Of a stretch of 64,000 nt of DNA, positions 12,626 through 56,682 are shown piece by piece. Source of the stretch: an uncultured Candidatus Saccharibacteria bacterium (GTDB taxonomy: Bacteria; Patescibacteriota; Dojkabacteria; CAZCSM01); the NCBI GenBank assembly GCA_964501355.1, contig CAZCSM010000003.1, positions 1,660 to 65,659 on the forward strand, written 5' to 3'. The notes beneath the pieces are model-generated. The model was not told where the DNA came from, did not search any database, and saw nothing but the letters and a program-made list of their open reading frames with translations. Position numbers and translations under genes: made by a program. The stretch's first letter is position 1. The number at the start of each line of letters is the position of its first letter.

Positions 12626-12667
12626 TAGTAGGGACAGGCCTTGTGCCTGTCCTTCGTTTTTTCTTAG
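12626..12667 (+). terminator. Rho-independent terminator of dnaK; a member of the GTAGGGACAGG hairpin repeat family
   Basis: GTAGGGACAGGCC-TTGT-GCCTGTCC hairpin followed by TTCGTTTTTTC. Confidence 0.75.
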
Positions 12668-13991: not shown

Positions 13992-14050
13992 TGTAGGGAC
14001 AGGTCTTGTGCCTGTCCTAAAAGGACAACCACGAGGGTTGTCCCTACGAG
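13992..14050. repeat. Compound GTAGGGACAGG/CCTGTCCCTAC palindromic hairpin element (nested hairpins)
   Basis: TGTAGGGACAGGTCTTGTGCCTGTCC...AGGACAACCACGAGGGTTGTCCCTAC. The same family occurs at 12626, 47608 and 51275. It probably acts as a bidirectional terminator between convergent genes. Confidence 0.7.
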
Positions 14051-16814: not shown

Positions 16815-18140
16815 TCAAGTCCCTTGCGATCTTTTTGTCCTCCGAATCGCAATAATAGTTATAGAACAAAGACAAACTAGAACTACAAGAGAGTTTATTA
16901 TCAATTTAATAGGAATGACATAAAATGATATTGAACTATTTAAGCCAACGGTGCCATCTTCACTTTTTACTTCTATCTCTGCATTATATTTCCCAAACAG
17001 ATACTTAAATTCCCATGAAGGAGAATCTTCTTGACTCTCCAATCGCCTTATTGTTCCGGGAAGAACAGTTGTTTTATCAAGAACAATCGTATCAACAATA
17101 TCACCTTTTCGATCTCTAATTTTTATCGTCCCATAAGCATTGTAGTGTAGTGTTCCTGTATTATTCACTCTTGCTGTAAACTCAACCGGGGAAATAAAGT
17201 TCCAGTCGTTCTTTACAGAAAATTCAACAATTTGACCGCTCTTCACAAGTTCTCCAAGGATTTCTCCTGAGTGAACAAAGTTGATATAACTTAGTATTCC
17301 GATTTTTCCGGTAACAAAAGACCCTGAACCGACTGTTGTTGATGCGGTGGGTATTGGTTCAATAAAAATTACATAATAGTATTCACCTTGTGGCAAAGTC
17401 TTTTCACCGTAAAAGTTGGCCGTAATAATTTTTGATGAATTGGCTGGGATTTTGACGGTGGATTCACTGAAGATAATTTCAATTTCTTTCTTTTCTTTTT
17501 CAAGAAAGTTTAATTTTCCATATTCTCCCACGATCTCAAATTTTTCGTAATAAACAAGATATTCTTGATCCAGGTTATTTAAGTTATAAACTTTAATTTC
17601 TTCATTCTTCGTTTCTTCTGCAACCAAATCCATTTCAAATTTAATTGGGTCTACGCCAAGAGAAGTTTTATCTTGAGCGTGAATTGGATGAGGGAAGAGT
17701 ATAGATGCTAGAGATAATATGGACATGAATGGAATTAGAGTAGCTAGTAGTTGGTAGCTAGTAGTTGTGGACTTTCTGATGCTTGAGATAAGCGCATTTA
17801 TTAACTTGGCAATCTCAATGCTTGTATTGGCTAATTCTTTAAAGACGTCTCGTTTCATGTAATCCAAATCTTTTGCAATTATTAATTGGTTTTGAACTTC
17901 CGTTAATGAACTAACGGAGACTTGATAGAATTGGATCTTTTCCTTTCTCGACCTTCTCGAAAATCCTTCTGCCAAATTACTGGTTATTGAAACGGCGGCT
18001 CGTCGTATTTGTGAGGAAAGTCCATATAATTCTTCCTTTGGAAATTTGTTTGTAATGCTGTAAATATCTAAAACAAAAACATGTCCTTTTTGCCAGGCTA
18101 TTAAATCGGTAAAGTTTTTAATCTTCTTGTTGTCGTCCAT
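16815..18140 (-). CDS. Fusion ORF: an N-terminal Avd-like four-helix-bundle domain (TIGR02436 / 23S-rRNA-IVS protein family) joined in frame to a signal-peptide surface protein with a C-terminal TM anchor
   Basis: Residues 1-~120 'IAWQKGHVFVLDIYSITNKFPKEELYGLSSQIRRAAVSITSNLAEGF...' are a classic four-helix-bundle protein with a strong RBS (AGGAG N6 ATG at 18140). The remainder starts at an internal Met (~17736) with signal peptide 'MSILSLASILFPHPIHAQ' and ends with a TM plus 'RRTKRSQGT'. Imperfect direct repeats GTAGCTAGCAACTAG / CTAGCTACCAACTACTAGCTAC flank the bundle module. Confidence 0.6.
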   Translation of the reverse strand: MDDNKKIKNFTDLIAWQKGHVFVLDIYSITNKFPKEELYGLSSQIRRAAVSITSNLAEGFSRRSRKEKIQFYQVSVSSLTEVQNQLIIAKDLDYMKRDVFKELANTSIEIAKLINALISSIRKSTTTSYQLLATLIPFMSILSLASILFPHPIHAQDKTSLGVDPIKFEMDLVAEETKNEEIKVYNLNNLDQEYLVYYEKFEIVGEYGKLNFLEKEKKEIEIIFSESTVKIPANSSKIITANFYGEKTLPQGEYYYVIFIEPIPTASTTVGSGSFVTGKIGILSYINFVHSGEILGELVKSGQIVEFSVKNDWNFISPVEFTARVNNTGTLHYNAYGTIKIRDRKGDIVDTIVLDKTTVLPGTIRRLESQEDSPSWEFKYLFGKYNAEIEVKSEDGTVGLNSSISFYVIPIKLIINSLVVLVCLCSITIIAIRRTKRSQGT

Positions 18141-22406: not shown

Positions 22407-22461
22407 GAGACTTGGCAGATTTATTACATCTTTAGAATAGAGAATAATTGGGGAAGAGTAA

Positions 22462-22624
22462 AGGGGAATTCAAAATGCAAATATTTCGATAAACTCAGCA
22501 CAAGTCTCAAAAATCAAATCAAAAATAAAAATATAATTCAGTATAAAGGATGTATCAAAGTAGTTGCAAAATAGATAAAAATGGTTACAAAGTTGTTAAA
22601 ACATTGTTCAAACGTAGATAAAAC
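22462..22624 (+). repeat. Direct repeat copy A (~160 bp), upstream boundary of the DGR island
   Basis: AGGGGAATTCAAAATGCAAA...AAAAATAAAAATATAATTCAGTATAAAG..TCAAAGTAGTTGCAAAATAGATA.AAATGGTTACAAAGTTGTTAAAACATTGTTCAAACGT.GATAAAA is nearly identical to 27046-27194. Confidence 0.85.
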
Positions 22625-22927
22625 GCCCTGTTTCTCCTCCTTTTTTACCCACGCCTTGGCGGGGCAAGCAAGGAGGGGTGATTCCGAAGGAATCGGGGTG
22701 GTTGAGGGAAGTGCAATAGGGTTCCAAAACCTTTCTGCGAAAAGATAGTTTGATAAACTCATCACAGGTTTAGGAACCATCGGTAGTTTTTAATTTGGAA
22801 TTTTGGTAATTGTAATTTGTTTGGAAATTGAGATTTGGAAATTGGTGCTTAAATGTTGTGCCAGTCACTCACTTTCGGGTGACGGTTTACAATCAGAACG
22901 CTAAATGAACATAAGTTGTCATTGCGA

Positions 22928-23101: not shown

Positions 23102-24031
23102 ATGAAAATTCAGAAACGTGATATTTTAATCTTTTCTATCGGTGTGCTCATTACCTTAGCATTTTCTCCATTCTTCAAATCTCTCGTTTCCGCGGAGCAA
23201 TCCGGCACTACTCCAAATAGCGGAGCAACATCATACATCAAACAACTTTACGATTCGCTGGTATCACTAGGCAATGGTTCTGATTCATCGGGATCATGGG
23301 GAGATTGGGGAGGGATGTGGAATAGGATTCGCTCATCTTCGGAATGGGTGCCAAGCGGAGATGCAACTGCGGGAGATGTGGTGGCGGGGAAGATGTTTTA
23401 TGGCAATTCAAGAACGCAGATGATTGGGACTGGTCCAGAACCGATAGATTTTTCACTTTTTCAGTACAGTGCCAGAGACGATTACGCAGGTGCATACTAT
23501 ACAGGACTTGGACCTGAAGACTATCAGGGCGAGGAAGCGGAATGGACAGATCATAGTGTTGATGCTGATGTGGTCTGGAAAGATGAACGGGCAGGTATGT
23601 ACTGGACCGCTGACAGAGGAATTCTGACTGCGAATAATTTCACAATGGCAACCTGTCAATTTTTCACATCAGAGCCTAGATCGAGTTATGACGGGAGCGA
23701 CTTGACATGTGGGGGGACAGCAGAAGAACCTCATGCGATAAACTACTGTGCTACACTAGATTATGGAGGAAGAACCGACTGGTATCTACCATCTCAGAAG
23801 GAGCTAATGATGGCATACATAGATGGTATGTACAATCAGGCAGGAGCTACACCAGCAGAAGCAGCAGCATTTACGTATGGCACTTCAGGAGGTGGTGGTT
23901 ATCGGTTCTGGTCGTCTTCCGAGGTGTCTAACAATCCAACAAACGCTTGGACCGTAAACATGAGCATCGGCAACACGAACTACACCATTAAGACGAATGC
24001 GCTCGCCGTTAGGTGTGTAGCGAGGGACTGA
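23102..24031 (+). CDS. DGR target protein: a secreted/membrane-anchored DUF1566 (Lcl-like C-type-lectin fold) protein with a C-terminal variable region
   Basis: N-terminal signal/TM segment. 'CATLDYGGRTDWYLPSQKEL' is the DUF1566 hallmark. The C-terminus '...YRFWSSSEVSNNPTNAWTVNMSIGNTNYTIKTNALAVRCVARD' is the VR, matched by the TR at 24361-24483. Confidence 0.85.
   Translation: MKIQKRDILIFSIGVLITLAFSPFFKSLVSAEQSGTTPNSGATSYIKQLYDSLVSLGNGSDSSGSWGDWGGMWNRIRSSSEWVPSGDATAGDVVAGKMFYGNSRTQMIGTGPEPIDFSLFQYSARDDYAGAYYTGLGPEDYQGEEAEWTDHSVDADVVWKDERAGMYWTADRGILTANNFTMATCQFFTSEPRSSYDGSDLTCGGTAEEPHAINYCATLDYGGRTDWYLPSQKELMMAYIDGMYNQAGATPAEAAAFTYGTSGGGGYRFWSSSEVSNNPTNAWTVNMSIGNTNYTIKTNALAVRCVARD
23906..24028 (+). 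other. DGR variable region (VR)
   Basis: 123 bp aligning with the TR. The 5' 45 bp are identical. The 3' part shows 11 substitutions, 10 of them at TR adenines (AAC->ACC/AGC/ATC/TAC/CTC, AAT->ATT, ACA->ACG, GCA->GCG). It ends GTTAGGTGTGTAGCGAGGGAC. Confidence 0.85.
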
Positions 24032-24065
24032 TGATTAGAATTTAATAATTTCTTATTTAAAATTT

Positions 24066-24091
24066 ATCATCCGATCTTTAGATCGGATGAT
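24066..24091 (+). promoter_or_regulatory. Perfect stem-loop 38 bp downstream of the VR (ATCATCCGATC-TTTA-GATCGGATGAT)
   Basis: 11-bp perfect stem with a 4-nt loop. Its position matches the DNA hairpin/cruciform that enhances homing in characterised DGRs. Confidence 0.6.
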
Positions 24092-24360
24092 TTGCGACAA
24101 AAAACTACTATATTGAAAAAACTAGTAAAGTGGTGTAGATTATTGTCGCGTGGATTCTATAGTTACAACTTCATCGTAAGCTCTGAGCTATAGGGAAGGC
24201 CCGATTTTCAGTCCGTTCCACTGCACCTGATTTTTTCAGGTATTATTATTCAGTGAGACTTTTTCGCTGAAATGCGAATCAGTCTTATGGTGGATTCTGT
24301 GTTAGACAAGATTCTAATGTCTTGTCTTGCAGAATAAAGTCAGTGGGAAATAGCGTTGTG

Positions 24361-24483
24361 TTCTGGTCGTCTTCCGAGGTGTCTAACAATCCAACAAACG
24401 CTTGGAACGTAAACTTGAACAACGGCAACACGAACAACAACAATAAGACAAATGCAAACGCCGTTAGGTGTGTAGCGAGGGAC
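24361..24483 (+). other. DGR template repeat (TR), adenine-rich (AAC-codon rich)
   Basis: TTCTGGTCGTCTTCCGAGGTGTCTAACAATCCAACAAACGCTTGGAACGTAAACTTGAACAACGGCAACACGAACAACAACAATAAGACAAATGCAAACGCCGTTAGGTGTGTAGCGAGGGAC, in the same orientation as the VR (plus strand). Confidence 0.85.
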
Positions 24484-24497
24484 TTATCATCGGGCTT

Positions 24498-24857
24498 TTA
24501 CGCAGTCTGGTTCTCCGACCACTTGATCCATCCGTTAAGCATTTTAGCGATTTCCTCATTTTGGGATATTATGTAAGCATACTGTTGGGAAGCGATAAGT
24601 TTCAACTCATGTGCCATACGCAGTCGTGATTTCAACCTGTCAAACGAAGCAGAAGCTTGACGAATAATTCCAGCCTTTTGAGTGTTTTGGCGAGTATTCG
24701 TAGCAATTATTTTATCAAGAGTTTCCCATGCACAGTCAATTATTGATTGACCAAGCGTGTACTTATATTCTTTTTTGAAATTCCTGACAAGTAGATACAA
24801 ATATTTCAAAAGTTTGTATGTGGCTACATACAGAGGAAGTTCGTCTAATTTGCTCAT
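24498..24857 (-). CDS. avd: DGR accessory variability determinant (Avd)
   Basis: 119-aa basic helical protein immediately downstream of and 4-bp overlapping the RT. Size and position are typical of Avd. Its 3' end abuts the TR. Confidence 0.75.
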   Translation of the reverse strand: MSKLDELPLYVATYKLLKYLYLLVRNFKKEYKYTLGQSIIDCAWETLDKIIATNTRQNTQKAGIIRQASASFDRLKSRLRMAHELKLIASQQYAYIISQNEEIAKMLNGWIKWSENQTA

Positions 24858-26056
24858 TTTTGTTTTGCAACTAAAGTAAAATATGAATAATTGTCATCAA
24901 TTGGCACTAAGTACTCTTTCAAAGTTCCAAAATGATTTTCATACAGATCTCTACGAAGATTGAAGCAGTTCGCATGTTTAAAATGTCCGTAGTACGAATT
25001 AACCATAGCTAGCATCTTTCTTAACTCTTGCTTTGTTGGGGGTGTAGACAACGGTAATACCATCTGTTTTTGATTTTGCGAAACAAGCAGTTTCCCCTGA
25101 TTGAAGTAATGAAGCTTCGTTTTGAGATTTTGCACCACACGTTTTCTTGCCAGAGTATATTTAGGCTTAACTATATAACCAATAAAATCTATTCCTGAAT
25201 AAACTGAATTGTATTTATCCTTATTTGGGTGAAGTATCAATTGTAAATTTTTCTGTAGAAAAGTGTTTATCTTTTTCCTCCACTGTTTTATCTTATTCAT
25301 ATCATTTGAAATAACGACAAAATCATCAACATACCGTATGTAGTGCTTGATTTTCAACTCACGTTTTACGTACTGATCAAGCTCATTCAAGTATACGTTA
25401 GCAAAAAATTGTGATGTTAAATTTCCTATTGGAAGTCCTTTGTCTTTCCCAGCTTTAAAAAGCGTTTTGTGAGGCGGTATCTGTTTTAGAAGAGATCTAT
25501 CACCTTTGAAGAAAAAATTATCGGTAGGATTATGGTTAAGAATAATTTCTGTGAGCCAGATCAGGTCATCCTTTCTATGTTTTGGAAAATGATTTTCTAT
25601 CTCACTGATGATGATTTCTTTTAGAATATTTTTATCAATCGAAGTAAAAAAGCTTCTGACATCAAACTGCCCATAAAACGCTTTTTTGCTGTAATTTCCT
25701 GTTACGGATCGAATAGCTTTCTTGAGACAGGTTATGGCAGTCAGAAGCCCTTTGTTTTTCCTGCATGCAAAAGAAGAATAGATGAACCGTTTTTCAAAAT
25801 GAGGCTCAAGGTGTGATACAAGCAGATGATGGATAATCCTATCTCTAAAATCGGCGGCAAACACCTCTCTGATCTTCGGATATGTAACCACAAAACAGAT
25901 AGACTTGCCAGGTCTGTACGTTCTGTTTTTCAGTTCTTCAAAAAGCTTCAGGATACTGGATTCAAAATTCATCTCAAACTTAAGAGAGTTAATGGTATTT
26001 CGTTTGTTCTTTCTGCAGGAAAGGTAAGCTTTTAATAAATCTTTTAGTGTAAACAT
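24854..26056 (-). CDS. DGR reverse transcriptase
   Basis: RT motifs 'PKIREVFAADFRDRIIHHLL' and 'YVDDFVV' (YxDD). The DGR-specific 'LPIGNLTSQFFANVYLNELD' (I/LGxxxSQ) replaces the QGxxxSP of other RTs. Confidence 0.9.
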   Translation of the reverse strand: MFTLKDLLKAYLSCRKNKRNTINSLKFEMNFESSILKLFEELKNRTYRPGKSICFVVTYPKIREVFAADFRDRIIHHLLVSHLEPHFEKRFIYSSFACRKNKGLLTAITCLKKAIRSVTGNYSKKAFYGQFDVRSFFTSIDKNILKEIIISEIENHFPKHRKDDLIWLTEIILNHNPTDNFFFKGDRSLLKQIPPHKTLFKAGKDKGLPIGNLTSQFFANVYLNELDQYVKRELKIKHYIRYVDDFVVISNDMNKIKQWRKKINTFLQKNLQLILHPNKDKYNSVYSGIDFIGYIVKPKYTLARKRVVQNLKTKLHYFNQGKLLVSQNQKQMVLPLSTPPTKQELRKMLAMVNSYYGHFKHANCFNLRRDLYENHFGTLKEYLVPIDDNYSYFTLVAKQK

Positions 26057-27001: not shown

Positions 27002-27045
27002 ATGCAATGTTGAATCAATGTGGTAGCAATGTTGAAGAATCGTAG

Positions 27046-27194
27046 AGGGGAATTCAAAATGCAAAAATCAAAAATCAAAATAACAAATCAAAAATAAAAA
27101 TATAATTCAGTATAAAGAACGTTTCAAAGTAGTTGCAAAATAGATACAAAATGGTTACAAAGTTGTTAAAACATTGTTCAAACGTGGATAAAAG
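27046..27194 (+). repeat. Direct repeat copy B, downstream boundary of the DGR island
   Basis: See copy A. It is followed by a dense array of GC-rich hairpins at 27200-27410 (CCTTCC-TAATAA-GGAAGG, CCCCTTCTTTTTAGAGGGG, GTCAC-TTC-GTGAC, CCTTCC-TTTTTA-GGAAGG). Confidence 0.85.
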
Positions 27195-27379
27195 GTAGAA
27201 TAATCCTTCCTAATAAGGAAGGTGGGCTTTGCGAAGCAAAGGTCGGAAGGTGTAAACAATTAAACACACCCCGGCTTCACTTTGTTCAGTCCCCCTTCTT
27301 TTTAGAGGGGATCTGACGGAAGGCGTTGTAGAGGATACCTTCTGTCACTTCGTGACACCTTCCTTTTTAGGAAGGAAGA

Positions 27380-27407
27380 ACAAAAAAGGTCCAGACATGT
27401 CTGGACC
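27380..27407 (-). terminator. rpsT terminator: a perfect 20-bp palindrome GGTCCAGACATGTCTGGACC followed by a U-run on the minus strand
   Basis: On the minus strand the hairpin is followed by TTTTTTGTTCTTCC, 24 nt after the rpsT stop. Confidence 0.75.
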
Positions 27408-27430
27408 CTACGAGTTCTGAAAATTCCTAC

Positions 27431-27694
27431 TTATTTTGCAATAGAGTTTACTTTCTTTGCCATTCTAGATTTTAGTCTAGCGGCTGTGTTTGGGTGCATA
27501 AATCTTCTTGCTGCTTTATCAAGAGCTTTTGTTGCTTCTTGAAGTTTGGTTGTAGCTGTTTTTGCATCTTTTTCTACAACGGCTTTATTCGTTTCTTTAA
27601 CCAATCTCTTCGTTTTTACTCGAATCTTTTTGTTAATTTCAGCTTTTCTTCCTTGTACTCTGATTGCTTTTTTTGCGTTTGCTAAATTTGCCAC
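27431..27694 (-). CDS. rpsT: 30S ribosomal protein S20
   Basis: 'ANLANAKKAIRVQGRKAEINKKIRVKTK...ARRFMHPNTAARLKSRMAKKVN' matches S20 ('ANIKSAKKR...HKNKAAR'). The likely GTG start is at 27694. The longer 137-aa ORF call carries a non-S20 N-terminal extension. Confidence 0.8.
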   Translation of the reverse strand: MANLANAKKAIRVQGRKAEINKKIRVKTKRLVKETNKAVVEKDAKTATTKLQEATKALDKAARRFMHPNTAARLKSRMAKKVNSIAK

Positions 27695-28089
27695 GTTCTT
27701 AAAATTTTTAATAATTATTGTATATTTACCTTTGCGTTTTGATTGGGTCTGAGCTTCCAATCGATATGAATAGTACCAATAAATAGGTGGTAAGTCAATT
27801 ATTAATTGGGCAATATAGTAAATCATTTTAAGTAGTTTTTCCATAAATTTGTGAAAATCTCAAATTTAAAATTACAAATTTCAAATAAATTACAAATTCA
27901 AAAAATAAAATCACAAGCTATTATATATTTGTTATTTTTGTAAAAAACGTCACTTGATATAGTTTTAAATTTGAGTTTTTGGTAATTGAGGGTTGTTTGG
28001 AAATTGGTGCTTGGGATTTGGAAATTAAAGGCTGTTTCTACAGCCGCATCTGTAGTATAATTTCGATACTTCAATTTAGATTTGTAATA

Positions 28090-28626: not shown

Positions 28627-28676
28627 GGAAAAGTGAAATCCTGAAACAACTCAGGACTTTCGCTAGTGTCTTTTTT
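28627..28676 (+). repeat. Mini-copy (R5) of the CTGAAACAAC structured element family, lacking the internal domain
   Basis: GGAAAAGTGAAATCCTGAAACAAC-TCAGGACTTTCGCTAGTGTCTTTTTT compared with the full-copy core CCAAAAGTGCTGAAACAAC...GTTGTTTCAGACTTCGACGACTG. Confidence 0.5.
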
Positions 28677-34606: not shown

Positions 34607-35008
34607 TTGAGGTTCAGTGTTAGTATGAGAAAATAAATGTATAAGTTGTGATACATATTACTAATTTTATAAACATTTTTGTTCATATTTTGAACGAGTT
34701 TTAAAGTTAGTTTGTTGTATAAATATTCTTCCCATACTTTTGTGACCAAAAGTATGCAAAAGTCTTGGGGTGAATAAGTGCCCTCCAAGCACGAACTAAT
34801 TACAAATAGCAACCGGCATCATTCACCCCAAACCCCAGGTTAAAACAATCATTATTTACTACCAACCAGAAAATACACAAATGTAGACCTGTATTTTAAT
34901 GTGCTTACTTTCGTAACATGTATACAATCAGAACAATATATTTCAAATCAATCAACAGATATAGTATAATTCGATTGGTGTCAGAATGTCAGTTATTAAT
35001 TTAGTCAG

Positions 35009-35925: not shown

Positions 35926-36015
35926 TGGCGGAGAGGACAGGATTTGAACCTGCGGTAGCGGTTATGCTACACAGTCTTTCCAGGACTGCCAATTAAGCCA
36001 CTCTTGCACCTCTCC
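35926..36015 (-). tRNA. tRNA-Ser (anticodon GGA), type II with a long variable arm and encoded CCA
   Basis: Reverse complement GGAGAGGTGCAAGAGTGGCTTAATTGGCAGTCCTGGAAAGACTGTGTAGCATAACCGCTACCGCAGGTTCAAATCCTGTCCTCTCCGCCA. The anticodon loop is CTGGAAA, the T-arm is GGTTCAAATCC, and the acceptor stem is 7 bp. Confidence 0.85.
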
Positions 36016-37445: not shown

Positions 37446-37639
37446 GTTCAAAAATCAAATACTTCGACAGGCTCAGTACAGGTGGAGGATCAGACACATT
37501 ATAGTCACTAACTATAAATGAAGTCGGTAGATATGTTTTTAGTGTTGTGTTTTGTTAACAAAAGTTTTTAATTTGAGGCTAGTAAATAGTTATGTTCCTT
37601 TTGACACCAAATAACCCCCTTTGTTGCTTCGCAACATTT

Positions 37640-37780
37640 CCCCCTTATCAGGGGGAATCTACCAAAAGTGCCGAAACAACAGAACGTCCTCCAATCACGA
37701 CCTAAAAACAGGTTGCAACCGACATCTGTCGTTTCGGACTTCAACGAGTAACCGACCATCTACAGATAACAAAGGGGTAA
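37640..37780 (+). repeat. Structured intergenic element copy R1 of the CTGAAACAAC family (divergent)
   Basis: CCCCCTTATCAGGGGG hairpin, CCAAAAGTGCCGAAACAAC...GTCGTTTCGGACTTCAACGAGTAACCGACCATCTACAGATAACAAAGGGG. Confidence 0.6.
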
Positions 37781-37842
37781 ACAAAATAGTTCAGAACAAA
37801 AAGCTTTCTTTCATCAGATTCTATATTCTTGATAGTAAAGAA

Positions 37843-37882
37843 GTCTCGTGTCTGATTCTCCCTCCGGAGAATGACACGAGAC
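37843..37882. terminator. Bidirectional terminator hairpin between convergent genes (GTCTCGTGTC...GACACGAGAC)
   Basis: 10-bp stem enclosing a TTCTCC-CTCC-GGAGAA palindrome, followed by TTTTGATCTTTC. The inner palindrome is the reverse complement of the 46343-46370 element. Confidence 0.65.
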
Positions 37883-37901
37883 TTTTGATCTTTCAACCTG
37901 T

Positions 37902-41565: not shown

Positions 41566-41579
41566 AGTTTTTCATTGTA

Positions 41580-41737
41580 CTACTTTTGCAAACAAAAGTA
41601 GCCAAAATTTCTGGGACAACCTAGTTTCGACAAATAGCAATCAGATACAGATAACTACCGGAATAGGTTGGCCCAGACCCCAACGACTAACAGTCCAATA
41701 CCAAATTACAAAGGGAAGGCGGACTGTTACTTCTTTA
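41580..41737 (+). repeat. Structured intergenic element copy R2
   Basis: CTACTTTTG-CAAAC-CAAAAGTAG hairpin, CCAAAATTTCTGGGACAACC...GGTTGGCCCAGACCCCAACGACTAACAGTCC...CAAATTACAAAGGGAAGGCGGACTGTTACTTCTTTA. Confidence 0.65.
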
Positions 41738-42131
41738 AATCATATGATTCTTTTATCCATTCCGTTAATTCCTCATCTATTTCTCCTGCACTTGCAATAA
41801 ATAATTGATGTTTATAATTTGTTGCAGATAATGGTACGGTTTGCACTATTCGTGGACTTTTCAAAATTCTATCAAGGGCAAATCGTATTTCTAATTTGTC
41901 TTTCTTTGGCAACAGTGCGATAAAGTCGTAGTTTCCAAATAAGTGTATGCAGCAAGGTAATGAAATTTCTTTCACTTTTCCAATTTCGGATTCTATTATT
42001 TTTAGCAATTGTTTATAGAGGTTTGCCGCAAGCTCTTTATTTTCAAAGTGCGATTCTATTGGAACCTTTTTGCAACTATGCATCTGGTTAGCTTTATCAA
42101 AAATTCTGCCACAAGATTTACAGGTCCACAT
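41727..42131 (-). CDS. Hypothetical protein (N-terminal CxxC...HxC zinc-ribbon-like)
   Basis: 134-aa ORF starting 'MWTCKSCGRIFDKANQMHSCKK'. Confidence 0.45.
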   Translation of the reverse strand: MWTCKSCGRIFDKANQMHSCKKVPIESHFENKELAANLYKQLLKIIESEIGKVKEISLPCCIHLFGNYDFIALLPKKDKLEIRFALDRILKSPRIVQTVPLSATNYKHQLFIASAGEIDEELTEWIKESYDLKK

Positions 42132-47531: not shown

Positions 47532-47607
47532 CTGTTTATGTATCTTATCTAAAACGTTACGATTATAGCAAAAATAGTGAGTAGTAAGTAGTGAATAGCG
47601 AGTAGTG

Positions 47608-47683
47608 TAGGGACAGGTTTGAAACCTGTCCCTACGTAAGGTGTCATTCCGGACAGCGATTTTAGGAGCGTGATCCGGAATTT
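47608..47683. repeat. Tandem palindromic repeats: a GTAGGGACAGG hairpin followed by a GTGTCATTCCGGA...TCCGGAAT element
   Basis: GTAGGGACAGGTTTGAAACCTGTCCCTAC, then GTGTCATTCCGGACAGCGATTTTAGGAGCGTGATCCGGAAT. The latter matches the reverse complement of 19081-19135. Confidence 0.7.
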
Positions 47684-48994: not shown

Positions 48995-49093
48995 GATAAT
49001 AATTTTTTACTGTAATGATTATTCAGCTTGGATTATAACATTTTATTATCATTGCGAGGAGGGGAATCTTTTTTTAATAAATATTGAGACTAT

Positions 49094-49246
49094 GTTACTT
49101 TTTACACAAAAAGTAACCAAAAGTGCTGAAACAACATAGCGCCTCAGATAGCAACCTTGAAACAAATAACTACCGGCATACGTTGTTTCAGACTTCGACG
49201 ACTGGACAACCCAATACAAATAACAAGGGGGCTGTTACTTCTTTAC
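49094..49246 (+). repeat. Structured intergenic element copy R3, in the fmt 5' region
   Basis: GTTACTTTTT-ACAC-AAAAAGTAAC hairpin, CCAAAAGTGCTGAAACAAC...GTTGTTTCAGACTTCGACGACTGGACAACCCAATACAAATAACAAGGGGGCTGTTACTTCTTTA. Confidence 0.65.
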
Positions 49247-50909: not shown

Positions 50910-50954
50910 AACCGAAGTTATTCGATAAGCCGAATTTTGTATTCATCAACAAAG

Positions 50955-51247
50955 ATGAACGATGATCATCTATCTAAGCTGCCTACTCTTTGGCATTGCT
51001 CTAGATGGGGGTTACAATGCGTACGTCATTACTGACAATACCGGTGGTCTCTTACACCGCCTTTTCACCCTTACTTATCTTTCGATAAGCGGTATATTTT
51101 CTGTGGCCCTTTTCTCCGTGAGATTGCTCCCACCCAACTTTCGTTGGCATCACGACCTTCGATTTTGCTGGAGGACTTGTCCTGAGCTTGTCGAAGGAGA
51201 GTCCGGACTTTCCTCAGTGCTTGCGCACCGCGATCATCTGAATAACT
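50955..51247 (-). ncRNA. rnpB: RNase P RNA (bacterial type, reduced)
   Basis: The minus strand reads ...CAGATGATCGCGGTGCGCAAGCACTGAGGAAAGTCCGGACTCTCC... (P4 5' strand GGAAAGUCCGG) and ...AGTAAGGGTGAAAAGGCGGTGTAAGAGACCACC... (consensus GGGUGAAAnGGUGcGGUAAGAGCGCACC). It ends with GGCAGCTTAGATAGATGATCATC, closing P1 with the 5' GATGATC. TATAAT lies at 51255-51260 on the minus strand. Confidence 0.8.
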
Positions 51248-51302
51248 TACGGTGCTATTATAGCATTTTTTGTGATGTAGGGACAGAGTATTACTCTGTC
51301 CC

Positions 51303-51337
51303 TACAGAAAAAGAAAAGTCACCCGATGGCGGGTGAC
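51303..51337 (-). terminator. Rho-independent terminator of the 51361-51780 gene
   Basis: Minus strand AAGTCACCCGCCATCGGGTGACTT followed by TTCTTTTTCTG. Confidence 0.7.
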
Positions 51338-52110: not shown

Positions 52111-52116
52111 ATATTG

Positions 52117-54840
52117 ATGAAATTTACAGTTAATCAAAAAATATTTGAAAAGTACCCAAATGTAATTCTTGGTATTATTCATGTTTCAGATTTGCAGAAT
52201 AAGAAAGAATTTGAAAAAGAGGATGCGATGGAATTTCTACAAGGTCATGAAGCAAATGTGCGGGAATTCTTGAAAGAGAATGAAATAACAGATTTGTCTG
52301 TTGTTCAAAACTGGCGTGAGATATTCCAATCTTTTGGTTCAAAACCAAGTAAGTTCAAATCGTCAATTGAAGCACTCCTTCGTCGTGAGAAAAAAGGAGA
52401 GGCTTTGCCTGATATTAATCCGTTGGTTAATTTTTACAATGCTCTTTCATTACATTACAAAATCCCATTTGGAGCAGAGGATTTAACAAAAATTGTTGGC
52501 AATGTTGAACTTACATTTTCTGATGGAACGGTTGCTTGTCAGTTGATTGGTGATAATGAACCTAAACTTGCAGATGAGGGTGAAGTTGTTTACAAGGATG
52601 ATGTTGGCGCAATTTGCCGCAAGTGGTGCTGGCGAGAATCGGATCGTACAAAGATTACAGAGGAAACAACTGATGCCTTCTTCGTTATAGAATTTAATGA
52701 CGGTGATTTAGAAAATGCAAAGCAGGTTGTTGCAGAAACAATCGATGCAATGAATCACTTCTTCGATGTGAAAACACAAAGCTGGATTGTAAATAAAGAT
52801 AATAATGAAATTGAAATTCCGTTTGGAACGAAGCAAGAAGGAGAAAAACTGGTTGTGCAGGAACGAAAAGAATCCGCCTTCGCCAAGGCTTCGGCGGACA
52901 AGAGAGAAAATAAGGTATATCAGCCGAAGACGAATATTGAAGCGAAGGTTTTTCAAGTCTTATCGTTAGTTGTCAAAGAAAAGTTTGGAGAAGAATTTGT
53001 TTCAGATATTGAGCTTGAGCATCCGGCAGATGAATCGCATGGTGACCTCGCGACTAATATCGCAATGAAATTAGCCGGAAGGTTGAAACGAAATCCAAGA
53101 GAAATTGCGCAGGAAATTTTTGAAGAGTTGGATCCAATGGTTCGCGGTATGTTGAAAAAAGGTGATAGAGTAACACGGGTAACCTATTTTGATTTTCCTA
53201 ATGGTTTGATAGGCGATGTTAAGATTGCAGGATCGGGATTTATCAACTTCTTTATTCATAAAGAGAGTTTGGTCTCTGAGATTAAAGACATGAACGAATC
53301 ATATGGTAAATCTTCAAAATATTCCGGTCAAAAAGTTTTACTTGAGCACACTAGTGCCAATCCCAATAAAGCTATGCACATTGGGCATGTTAGAAATAAT
53401 ATTCTTGGTAACTCATTAATAAAACTTCTCGAAGCGGTGGGATATGAAGTTACTGCGGATTACATTGTAAATGATCGCGGGGCTTCAATCTCGAAGGTAA
53501 TGTGGGGTTACCTGAACTTTGCGCAAAAGCAAAATAATCAGGTTTTGAGTACGTGGGAGGATATTAAAGTAAATCTCGCAGGAACAAACTTCGATGAACT
53601 ATTATCAACATGGAATAATTCTCCTGAGCAATGGTTAACACCGGAAGATTTTGAAAATCTGAAATCAGACGAGATGATGGAAAAAGTTTATGTTCTTGCG
53701 TCTCATGCATCGAAAGAACTTGATTGGGTAGATGCTCAGGTCTCGAAGATTCTTGTTGATTGGGAATCAGAAATTCCTGAGAATCGAAAACTTTGGAAGC
53801 AAATATTAGATTGGGTTTTTTCCGGACAGAAGAAAACGATGGCAAGAATGGGAAGTCGGACAGATCATTTCTGGTTTGAGAGCGATTTCTATAAGGAAGG
53901 AAAAGAAATTGTAACAGAAGGATTGGAAAAAGGAGTTTTTCGAAAAGATGGAACGGCAATTATTACCAACTTTGAGGAACATGGTTTGCCGGATACAATT
54001 GTTATCAAATCTGATGGAACGGCGCTTTACATCACGCAGGATTTGAAACTTACTGAATTAAAAACTCAGAAATTCCCATCCAATAAATATATCTGGGTAG
54101 TCGGTGCGGAACAAAAATTAACGCTTCAACAAGCTTTCCTCGCAGATCATCTATTAGGTATTGTCGACAAAGAAAAACTTTATCACTTTGCCTATGGACT
54201 ATTTACAACTGCATCCGGAGAGAAAATTGGATCTCGAAAAGGAAATGTTGTTTCTGCAGATAATCTTCTGGATTTAGTTACAGATAGCGCAAAGAGCGTA
54301 ATTGAAGAGAAGGGGTTGGAATATTCAGAAGACGAGAAACGAAATATTGCAGAGAAAGTAGGGATTGGGGCTTTGAAATATTTCATTTTGAAATCTAACC
54401 CGTTAAGTTCTCTGAAGTTTGACGCTATAGAAGCAACCTCGTTTGATGGTAATACCGGCCCATATTTGCAGTACACTTATGCGAGGGCAAAAAGTATATT
54501 ACGTGATTCGGACTCCCACCACCCCGATTCCTTCGGAATCACCCCTCCTCGGGCAGAAGGGGAAAATTTGTTTGTTGCGGATTCAGAAATGGCGCTCCTT
54601 CGAACTCTGTACAGGTTTCCTGAATCTGTAATCAATGCAGCAGAAAACTATGCACCGAATTATGTCGCCGATTACATTTTTGATCTTGCGCAGAAATTCA
54701 ATGCGTTCTATCGCGAATGTCCTGTTCTTAGCGCAGAAGACTCCGTAAAGAACTCAAGATTGTTATTAACCGCTTCGGTTGCACAGGTATTGAAGAACGG
54801 ATTAAACCTACTGGGGATCGAAACGTTGGAACGAATGTAA
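52117..54840 (+). CDS. argS: Arginine--tRNA ligase with an N-terminal B3/4 (tRNA-binding) domain fusion
   Basis: Residues ~300-908 carry the Arg_tRNA_synt_N domain ('IELEHPADESHGDLATNIAMKLA'), the class I 'HIGH' motif ('PNKAMHIGHVRNNILGN') and the anticodon-binding C-terminus. Residues 1-~240 resemble stand-alone B3/4-domain proteins. An in-frame palindromic repeat lies near codon 800. Confidence 0.88.
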   Translation: MKFTVNQKIFEKYPNVILGIIHVSDLQNKKEFEKEDAMEFLQGHEANVREFLKENEITDLSVVQNWREIFQSFGSKPSKFKSSIEALLRREKKGEALPDINPLVNFYNALSLHYKIPFGAEDLTKIVGNVELTFSDGTVACQLIGDNEPKLADEGEVVYKDDVGAICRKWCWRESDRTKITEETTDAFFVIEFNDGDLENAKQVVAETIDAMNHFFDVKTQSWIVNKDNNEIEIPFGTKQEGEKLVVQERKESAFAKASADKRENKVYQPKTNIEAKVFQVLSLVVKEKFGEEFVSDIELEHPADESHGDLATNIAMKLAGRLKRNPREIAQEIFEELDPMVRGMLKKGDRVTRVTYFDFPNGLIGDVKIAGSGFINFFIHKESLVSEIKDMNESYGKSSKYSGQKVLLEHTSANPNKAMHIGHVRNNILGNSLIKLLEAVGYEVTADYIVNDRGASISKVMWGYLNFAQKQNNQVLSTWEDIKVNLAGTNFDELLSTWNNSPEQWLTPEDFENLKSDEMMEKVYVLASHASKELDWVDAQVSKILVDWESEIPENRKLWKQILDWVFSGQKKTMARMGSRTDHFWFESDFYKEGKEIVTEGLEKGVFRKDGTAIITNFEEHGLPDTIVIKSDGTALYITQDLKLTELKTQKFPSNKYIWVVGAEQKLTLQQAFLADHLLGIVDKEKLYHFAYGLFTTASGEKIGSRKGNVVSADNLLDLVTDSAKSVIEEKGLEYSEDEKRNIAEKVGIGALKYFILKSNPLSSLKFDAIEATSFDGNTGPYLQYTYARAKSILRDSDSHHPDSFGITPPRAEGENLFVADSEMALLRTLYRFPESVINAAENYAPNYVADYIFDLAQKFNAFYRECPVLSAEDSVKNSRLLLTASVAQVLKNGLNLLGIETLERM
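54508..54565. repeat. Palindromic GC-rich element inserted in frame within argS
   Basis: GGACTCCCACCACCCCGATTCCTTCGGAATCACCCCTCCTCGG. Its reverse complement, GAGGAGGGGTGATTCCGAAGGAATCGGGGTGGT, matches the intergenic sequence at 22671-22702 over 30 of 30 core nt. It encodes '...SDSHHPDSFGITPPRAEGE...'. Confidence 0.75.
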
Positions 54841-56402: not shown

Positions 56403-56457
56403 AGATTACATAAACAGTGTTTGGTTAAGGTCAGAAAAATAACAATAATTTGATAAT

Positions 56458-56597
56458 GTTACTTTTGTCACCAAAAGTAACCAAAAGTGCTGAAACAAAC
56501 CAGTTCCAACAAATAGCAATCAAATACAAATAGCTATCGGAATGGCTTGTTTCAGACTTCGTCGACTGTCCGACCTGATTCAGATAACAGAAGGAAC
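56458..56597 (+). repeat. Structured intergenic element copy R4
   Basis: GTTACTTTT-GTCACC-AAAAGTAAC hairpin, CCAAAAGTGCTGAAACAAACC...GGCTTGTTTCAGACTTCGTCGACTGTCCGACCTGATTCAGATAACAGAAGGAAC. Confidence 0.65.
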
Positions 56598-56682
56598 TTT
56601 CACAAACAACTTTCTCCTTGAGTTTACCTCGCCTTAATAATTCCCTGATTTAATGTTAATGCCTAATTTATGATTTGGATAA

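Follow-up and report, generated by a model that had tools for sequence, protein, structure and literature searches.

A family of short structured repeats in a Patescibacteria genome, with a fold most likely selected as minus-strand RNA

What kind of element occupies positions 37640-37780 in this DNA of an uncultivated bacterium, and is its fold selected as RNA or as single-stranded DNA, and on which strand? The earlier note had placed it in a family of structured intergenic sequences with four full copies and one mini copy in 64 kb, the length of the whole stretch of DNA analysed here (the window). Proteins encoded in the window are nearest to those of Candidatus Dojkabacteria and other Patescibacteria, the best named matches having identities of 57-59% (ComM), up to 69% (heliorhodopsin) and 49-56% (a Gmad2 protein). 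By this measure the host would be an uncultivated Patescibacteria genome most similar to Candidatus Dojkabacteria. CPR bacteria have tiny genomes and, to our knowledge, almost nothing is known of their noncoding RNAs or small mobile elements.

The noncoding repeat, of about 150 bases, is real and uncatalogued, with five full copies and one probable remnant in 30 kb. Its length across the family is about 150-165 nt. The four full copies described earlier were confirmed by sequence, alignment and patterns at about the places given, in one orientation and between genes, and an unfiltered scan of the whole window with a covariance model of these four returned each of them. Building such a model had been proposed as a check, and the scan of the window found one more full copy (R0) that the earlier count had missed. 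R0 was recovered by a plus-strand model built without it with a score of 75.4 bits (E 1.3e-15, whole window, unfiltered), and it also reached 75.4 bits with a minus-strand model built from R2, R3 and R4, which scored R1 at 90 bits without having been built from it. Mean column identity in the alignment of the original four is 71%, and identity between copies is about 60-80%. Composite sequence patterns of the family match these copies only, with 0 matches in 100 shuffles. The copies, with the parts of R0, are as follows.

34731-34880 (model match 34731-34875), minus strand: copy R0, the most divergent full copy, not in the earlier note
34837-34880, minus strand: tail of R0
about 34758-34836, minus strand: long hairpin of R0
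34733-34756, minus strand: 3' hairpin H of R0
about 37636-37787, minus strand: copy R1, 3' of the heliorhodopsin gene and on its strand, with an ortholog in the closest relative
41577-41737, minus strand: copy R2, with a G-C rich outer stem and a 14-nt extension, CTGTTACTTCTTTA, at 41724-41737 (plus)
49092-49245, minus strand: copy R3, between the divergent queA and fmt genes, with a 14-nt extension at 49232-49245
about 56452-56605, minus strand: copy R4, our reference for the anatomy; Logan contig L001, of the same species, starts inside it
28627-28676, minus strand: mini copy, reading CGAAAGTCCTGA-GTTGTTTCAGG-ATTTCACTTTTCC, without tail and without H hairpin

Individual copies differ in instructive ways. 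The long stem of R0 has a different sequence that is fully compensated, forming the inverted repeat TTGGGGTGAAT/ATTCACCCCAA; a second inverted repeat, CATACTTTTG/CAAAAGTATG, is present as well, and both hairpins of this copy are intact. R1 has an H hairpin of different sequence (CCCCCT..AGGGGG) and a 10-bp inverted repeat of its own (37616-37625 / 37768-37777) that extends outside the element. The 14-nt extension CTGTTACTTCTTTA is common to R2 and R3 and absent from R0, R1 and R4. In R2 it provides the minus-strand DUF5655 gene (41727-42131) with its last three codons and its stop codon, and the gap between the two convergent genes is wholly occupied by this copy. In R3 an H arm recurs in the extension as an 11-nt terminal direct repeat, TGTTACTTTTT / TGTTACTTCTT, which we take as part of the element and not as a target duplication because its right-hand copy lies within the extension shared by R2 and R3. 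The extension of R3 can also pair with the other H arm. An alternative pairing of the hairpin arm with GTTACTTCTT, proposed earlier as giving mutually exclusive folds, is weakly supported: in R3 the match is 10 nt long at 90%, and R0, R1 and R4 lack the extension.

All copies lie between open reading frames and in one orientation, next to genes that, as had been noted, are unrelated: an Imm5-like gene, heliorhodopsin, DUF5655, queA/fmt, and a surface protein with ComM, with different functions at each copy. The gene pairs around them are convergent at R1 and R2, divergent at R0 and R3 and tandem at R4. On the minus strand, R1 and R2 directly follow the 3' ends of minus-strand genes, R0 and R3 precede such genes by 100-130 nt on their 5' side, and R4 is antisense to both of its neighbours. 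Part of the queA promoter region is conserved with the relative, and R3 lies upstream of this part. One weak match of the covariance model, at 27351-27454, consists of two ordinary terminator-like hairpins and is not a family member. The window also contains a separate palindrome family, GTAGGGACAGG..CCTGTCCCTAC, unrelated to the repeat.

The status of the mini copy is less firm. A 10-mer and a 7-mer of the family recur in it with their order and orientation preserved, for which 0 occurrences are expected by chance, and the composite pattern GTTGTTTCAG N0-8 CACTTTT matches the mini copy and R3 only (0 expected). Neither covariance model nor nhmmer detected it, and its fold is no better than that of shuffled sequences (z -1.4). 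It is probably a remnant that has degenerated or lost internal sequence.

On the minus strand, each element has a 5' tail (about 45 nt), a hairpin of about 31 bp that is interrupted by small bulges, a linker and a 3' hairpin H of 9-10 bp. The parts are listed here for R4.

56561-56605, minus strand: tail, unpaired
56484-56560, minus strand: long hairpin, its helices separated by bulges of 1-4 nt
56556-56560/56484-56488: helix P1a, 5 bp
56543-56555/56490-56502: helix P1b, 13 bp
56539-56542/56504-56507: helix P1c, 4 bp
56533-56538/56512-56517: helix P2, 6 bp
56529-56531/56519-56521: helix P3, 3-5 bp across the family
56458-56481, minus strand: hairpin H, 9-10 bp

The tail is single-stranded, reads CCCYUUGUUAUYUG...GUCGNCG, and is the best-conserved unpaired segment both among the copies and in the ortholog of the relative. 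The linker between the long hairpin and H is CACUUUUGG, and the H loops of three copies read GUGA, GUCA and GAUA on the minus strand. An element can contain the motif ACARATARC (plus strand; GYUAUYUGU on the RNA) up to three times, with two occurrences in the apical hairpin and one in the tail. Of its 11 matches in the whole window, where 2.7 would be expected, 8 belong to the five copies. P2 and P3 are built from a quasi-palindromic iterated motif.

Secondary structure, and not sequence alone, is under selection in this family. In the five-copy alignment with 41 pairs, 94.1% of the 205 stem cells pair and 23 of the 41 pairs have changed on both sides, with the reservation that these counts rest on five sequences from one genome in an alignment fitted to the structure. 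None of 500 shuffles reached any of the covariation measures, and sliding the partners by 1-3 columns reduced pairing to 40-54%. In addition, R1 and R0, both unseen by the minus-strand model, satisfy almost every one of its pairs. The earlier claim of selection on structure is therefore borne out, and the stem differences on which it was based, including the G-C pairs of R2 where the others have A-U, were correctly read.

The imperfect positions of the stems indicate which strand carries the selected fold. In the alignment derived from the model, the 41 pairs comprise 162 Watson-Crick, 31 G.U and 12 unpaired cells on the minus strand, whereas the identical pairs on the plus strand comprise 162 Watson-Crick, 2 G.U and 41 mismatched cells of the A.C type. 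A tally over helices segmented by hand gave 168 Watson-Crick, 39 G.U and 6 mismatched for the minus strand versus 168, 1 and 44 for the plus strand. Within P1b, each copy has one position that is not Watson-Crick, at a site that differs by copy; on the minus strand four of these five are G.U and the fifth is a C.U mismatch. Read on the minus strand the imperfect positions are G.U, and read on the plus strand they are A.C, so that a minus-strand transcript is the form in which the fold was most likely selected. The G.U excess is in part circular, because P2 and P3 were defined on the minus strand and consist of the iterated motif, but it persists in P1a, P1b, P1c and H, helices that the earlier note had defined on the plus strand.

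Folding energies agree with this. RNA minimum free energies range from -41 to -56 kcal/mol on the minus strand and from -32 to -41 kcal/mol on the plus strand, a difference of 6-17 kcal/mol in favour of the minus strand, and the RNA folds of both strands are significant against dinucleotide shuffles. The common structure is more stable on the minus strand in every copy, by 3-19 kcal/mol. With DNA energy parameters, both strands fold about equally and both significantly better than shuffles; the asymmetry is therefore what selection on RNA would produce. The layout described earlier was thus right in its long stem and short hairpin, but by the wobble pattern its strand was reversed: what had been called the 5' hairpin is the 3' hairpin of the minus-strand fold, and what had been called the 3' tail is its 5' tail. 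A second strand signal conflicts with the first. GC skew of the plus strand is positive across 0-60 kb, which marks this strand as the lagging-strand template, and all copies share one orientation on it. While the wobble pairs point to minus-strand RNA, orientation and skew would fit single-stranded DNA of the plus strand.

The earlier note had recognised no known RNA consensus in the element, and no Rfam family matches it. In a search of the whole window with the covariance models of Rfam 15, only RNase P and one tRNA reached the gathering score, and at E<=10 the regions of R1 and R3 gave chance fragments only or no match. Exact-pattern scans of 185,579 GTDB species genomes, of JGI metagenomes and of IMG/VR returned no family member, so that no autonomous parent was seen in them; a loose pattern gave nine matches in GTDB, all of them chance, each scoring below 13 bits with the family model. 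By blastn there was no match among phages and plasmids. A Pfam/NCBIfam scan of about 50 open reading frames in the window identified ordinary chromosomal genes (among them hrcA-grpE-dnaK, lepA, S20, queA, tgt, fmt, ArgRS, ComM and heliorhodopsin) and accessory genes, and within the window there was no gene for a transposase (Y1 TnpA, RAYT), TnpB/IscB, IS110, a recombinase, a nuclease or Cas. The 498-aa open reading frame upstream of R4 was considered as a nuclease or transposase and proved to be a Cys-rich repeat surface protein with a membrane anchor. The sole reverse transcriptase in the window is the enzyme of a DGR (24854-26056), more than 8.6 kb from any full copy, with a TR/VR pair at 24360-24490 / 23905-24035 that is unrelated to the repeat. 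A retron noncoding RNA or DGR template RNA was accordingly rejected, as no copy has an adjacent reverse transcriptase.

Signals shared by the copies were also sought. No terminal inverted repeats or target-site duplications common to them were found, and hence no transposition chemistry can be named. A promoter-like site at a fixed distance from the copies was found on neither strand, no copy has an intrinsic terminator after the 3' hairpin, and a U-tract follows neither hairpin. The terminators listed for the minus strand are only partial stems inside the long hairpins of R3 and R4, followed by the CACTTTTGG linker; none is listed for the plus strand. A promoter of the Bacteroidota kind, considered on account of low GC and TAnnTTTG-like hairpin motifs, was dropped since ComM, heliorhodopsin and Gmad2 are nearest to Dojkabacteria/Patescibacteria. 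Coding was discarded because the short reading frames (15-25 aa on the plus strand, 7-11 aa on the minus strand) encode peptides without conservation among the copies. A type I toxin-antitoxin repeat was likewise rejected: it would need a small hydrophobic reading frame conserved on one strand, but on neither strand are short reading frames conserved from copy to copy, and R0 has in-frame stops (sequence read by eye). Integron attC sites and CRISPR or TIGR arrays were rejected on spacing, since here 3-7 kb, housekeeping genes included, separate one copy from the next.

The distribution of the family is narrow. The same species is present in Logan run SRR8925812, where contigs start or end inside R4 and R1, as expected since repeats break assemblies. 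In the closest relative (93% identity in ComM, 88% in heliorhodopsin) there is no copy upstream of queA or ComM, and an ortholog of R1 is found 3' of heliorhodopsin (contigs L016/L017). Its tail and 19 nt of flank are conserved and its long hairpin appears to be replaced by GAAGUCU-GAAA-AGAUUCC; the contigs, from two samples, end 13 nt past this GAAA-capped stem. Such a replacement lends partial support to the earlier suggestion, drawn from the mini copy, that part of the element is an optional inserted domain. Relatives at 81% and 71% ComM identity have no copy in 16.8 kb and 15.6 kb, stretches that include the gene positions of R1, R2 and R4, and there is none at the equivalent gene position in relatives at 78-83% heliorhodopsin identity. 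A clean empty site was not found among these relatives, absence always being accompanied by differences in gene content. Taken together, these absences and the single ortholog confine the family to a narrow clade, within which copies appear, from these comparisons, to have been gained at several sites. It is nevertheless old enough for its copies to be only 60-80% identical while still pairing.

What, then, is the element? We see about an even chance that it is a young, lineage-restricted, non-autonomous interspersed repeat selected for its minus-strand RNA fold. Copies would have been gained within this lineage by some copying mechanism. Because each lacks a promoter, it would be transcribed within a neighbouring transcript. 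The RNA hairpin could be the feature that a mobilising machinery recognises, or it could act locally in the transcripts that carry it, for instance as a double-stranded processing or stability module, perhaps with an effect on neighbouring genes. An interspersed repeat is preferred to a conserved gene or cis-regulator because dispersal is blind to context, a gene end is overlapped, copy numbers differ between close relatives and both promoter and terminator are missing. It is improbable, in our judgement, that the copies are instead genes or modules of an undescribed class of functional RNA specific to this Patescibacteria lineage and made as a minus-strand transcript. In that case compensatory evolution would have kept the long, wobble-rich hairpin and the conserved tail in place, and ACARATARC (GYUAUYUGU) might be a protein-binding or self-pairing site. 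A more definite proposal, which we find somewhat unlikely, is that of trans-acting, multi-copy 'sibling' sRNA genes on the minus strand, in which the tail segment CCCCUUUGUUAUCUG would be the seed that pairs with G-rich ribosome-binding sites and the two hairpins would be modules for stability or protein binding. It accounts well for a fold selected on one strand with RNA-type wobble pairs, for the tail being the best-conserved unpaired segment also in the ortholog of the relative, and for the copy 3' of heliorhodopsin that is kept in two species. It is harder to reconcile with copies that have neither a promoter at a fixed distance nor an intrinsic terminator, with R2 overlapping coding sequence and providing a stop codon, with a long hairpin that is dispensable in the relative's ortholog, and with absence from the equivalent gene positions of relatives at 71-83% protein identity, which would be unusual for a family of regulatory RNAs. 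Recruitment of the element by its neighbours as a cis-regulatory RNA (a leader, attenuator, terminator or 3'-end stabiliser) is very unlikely. The positions of R1 and R2 directly 3' and of R0 and R3 5' of minus-strand genes would suit it, but these neighbours are functionally unrelated, the position is inconsistent, R4 is antisense on both sides, R3 lies upstream of the conserved part of the queA promoter, and no U-tract follows either hairpin. The leader or trailer suggested in the earlier note is unsupported for like reasons, since the copies are found between convergent, divergent and tandem gene pairs and have no common promoter or terminator.

The main alternative to a repeat selected for its RNA fold is an element that moves as single-stranded DNA by an HUH/Y1 enzyme, like a PATE of IS200/IS605 or a REPIN, with its hairpins recognised on the plus strand and its compensatory changes preserving the ability to transpose; we think this quite unlikely. 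C-to-T deamination of the exposed strand is the usual strand bias, and deamination of an exposed plus strand would act opposite to the asymmetry that we observe. Nor does the model predict that asymmetry, in which the plus-strand stems have 41 mismatches of the A.C type and only 2 G.T. The two hairpins are unrelated in sequence, unlike the left- and right-end hairpins that a single TnpA binds. Neither arm of the long hairpin is itself a REP palindrome, a 5' GTAG is lacking, and the 64-kb window contains no gene for a Y1 transposase, RAYT or TnpB. On the other hand, all six copies, remnant included, are in one orientation (two-sided p about 0.03) and the plus-strand GC skew is positive, which is of interest because in IS200/IS605 elements the active strand is found on the lagging-strand template (PMC5027513). 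The element has subterminal hairpins but neither terminal inverted repeats nor target duplications, as single-stranded DNA its two strands are both significantly better folded than shuffled sequences, and compensatory changes are also documented in the hairpins of REPINs (PMC3116915). The earlier proposal of an IS200/605-like right end or omega-RNA-like scaffold is unsupported: the hairpins are unrelated, TnpA, TnpB and IscB are missing from the window and Rfam gave no match. Stand-alone guide-RNA scaffolds of the omega-RNA or bridge-RNA kind, left by or serving a nuclease or recombinase encoded elsewhere, are most improbable. The elements are indeed structured, of about 150 nt, orientation-specific and adjacent to variable flanks. 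Against this, TnpB, IscB, IS110 and Cas genes are missing from the window and a match from Rfam, internal loops of 1-4 nt are far below the size of the target and donor loops of a bridge RNA, and the pattern scans of GTDB, JGI metagenomes and IMG/VR gave no autonomous parent. The tail is not a guide, since it is conserved between copies rather than variable.

Either form of the preferred reading, that of an interspersed repeat selected as minus-strand RNA, would be informative. A fold kept at each locus as an RNA feature would make the family an RNA module specific to the lineage; a fold required for mobility would point to a mode of short-element copying without inverted repeats or target duplications. 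Were the copies to belong to an undescribed RNA class, they would represent either an element that spreads by way of an RNA intermediate or a multi-copy family of regulatory RNAs, in that case the first described from a CPR bacterium. The family is compact and well delimited, and its compensatory evolution and strand signal are unusually clear, which makes the RNA hypothesis directly testable. A practical effect is that it fragments short-read assemblies of this organism.

Comparison with known systems helps to place the family. Similar to the REPINs and REP-BIMEs that are mobilised by RAYTs, it is short, noncoding, intergenic and multi-copy, with a long hairpin that carries compensatory changes (PMC3116915), it lacks classical terminal inverted repeats and target duplications, and it is inherited vertically within a lineage. 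It differs in that its hairpin arms are not REP palindromes with a 5' GTAG (we looked for the feature and it is absent), in its asymmetry (one side has a 45-nt tail, the other a second hairpin that is unrelated), in the lack of a RAYT in the window, and in a wobble pattern that points to RNA and to the strand opposite the lagging-strand template. With the PATEs and omega-RNA right ends of IS200/IS605 it shares subterminal hairpins, a strict orientation bias, the absence of inverted repeats and duplications, and a length of about 150 nt. In the family, however, H (GTTACTTTTG/CAAAAGTAAC) has no relation to the long stem (CTGAAACAAC../..GTTGTTTCAG), there is no conserved hairpin near the other end, no conserved 4-5-nt target motif was seen at a boundary, and TnpA and TnpB are missing from the window. 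As for the active strand of IS200/IS605, the copies have one orientation and a positive plus-strand GC skew, yet the strand that folds better and tolerates wobble is the minus strand. TnpB omega-RNAs differ further, as the conserved unpaired segment of the family is not a variable guide and Rfam gave no match.

Among RNA systems, sibling sRNAs such as Qrr, LhrC and csRNA resemble the family: one genome carries several paralogues of 100-150 nt, each structured and with a C/U-rich unpaired stretch that is conserved. Sibling sRNAs, however, each come with a promoter and an intrinsic terminator and persist throughout a genus or family, whereas the copies here have neither signal and are missing from the equivalent gene positions of relatives at 71-83% protein identity. 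Bridge and seek RNAs of IS110/IS1111 have two large guide loops and come with a DEDD/serine recombinase, unlike a family with loops of 1-4 nt and no recombinase in the window. Intrinsic terminators have a G+C-rich stem with a U-tract right behind it, a combination absent here, and two of the copies lie between divergent genes.

Correia elements of Neisseria, the enterobacterial ERIC/IRU and the pneumococcal RUP and BOX are repeats of 100-160 nt that are cotranscribed with their neighbours, form long RNA hairpins and can overlap gene ends upon insertion. Their hairpin consists of the terminal inverted repeats of a DDE-type MITE, with target duplications flanking it. In contrast to these hairpin MITEs, the family has an internal hairpin, its ends are not inverted repeats and no duplications are seen, so that both hallmarks of a classical DDE-derived MITE, shared terminal inverted repeats and target-site duplications, are lacking. 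While it matches none of the named families, we place the element in the broad class of bacterial interspersed structured repeats.

The full copies R0–R4 of the structured intergenic repeat are interspersed with the genes for RNase P RNA and an 87-nt tRNA; the region that carries them is thus part of the core chromosome rather than an island. The two RNA genes are:

50910-51249, minus strand, class A RNase P RNA (167 bits)
35929-36015, minus strand, tRNA of 87 nt with a long variable arm

A second repeat family in the window, unrelated to R0–R4, consists of REP-like perfect palindromes with a 5' GTAG, which are positioned after genes. A terminator-like hairpin and the repeats of a relative with 71% ComM identity (contig L014) are listed with them:

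12627-12656, 13992-14021, 47606-47635 and 51276-51305, REP-like palindromes TGTAGGGACAGG-loop-CCTGTCCCTAC
37838-37885, minus strand, terminator-like hairpin GTGTCATTCTCC..GGAGAATCAGACAC after the heliorhodopsin gene
L014 1-330, 1141-1413, 5690-5717 and 7342-7377, intergenic repeats, e.g., GACAACCCTAGGGTTGTCCCTACG and CTGGGGGACAAGTCG..GGATGA

The GTGTCATTCTCC..GGAGAATCAGACAC hairpin has a nearly identical counterpart in the closest relative (contig L011, about 100-135); there it stands upstream of queA, at the site that copy R3 holds in the window. It looks like a third hairpin-repeat family of the clade. The intergenic repeat families of L014 are its own and unrelated to those of the window. 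It seems that each lineage of the clade carries a private set of structured repeats.

Copy R2 includes a 14-nt extension (41724-41737) that it has in common with R3; the final three codons of a DUF5655 gene (41727-42131, minus strand) and its stop codon come from this extension. Both this gene and R2 are missing between DUF1801 and Cyt-b5 in one relative (contig L019, 6373-6426).

The window also holds a complete diversity-generating retroelement (DGR) at 23102-26056, with these components and surroundings:

24854-26056, minus strand, reverse transcriptase
24498-24857, minus strand, bAvd accessory protein
24360-24490, template repeat
23905-24035, variable repeat, inside the 3' end of a gene for an Lcl_C (C-type-lectin-like) domain protein
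22448-22860 and 27032-28035, direct-repeat blocks, about 4.6 kb apart
27115-27204, 11-nt periodic array

Template and variable repeats are 90% identical, with almost all mismatches at template adenines. The direct-repeat blocks, with units of 73-76 nt and 75-92% identity, lie on both sides of the cassette and suggest that it may be inside a duplicated or mobile segment.

Two further proteins encoded in the window are:

16815-18140, minus strand, 441-aa protein
52114-54840, arginyl-tRNA synthetase fused at its N-terminus to a B3_4 domain

The N-terminus of the former matches the 23S-rRNA-intervening-sequence/Avd-like four-helix bundle and is a second Avd-like domain, distant from the DGR. The synthetase fusion is also present in L014; the usual home of the B3_4 domain is the PheRS beta subunit.
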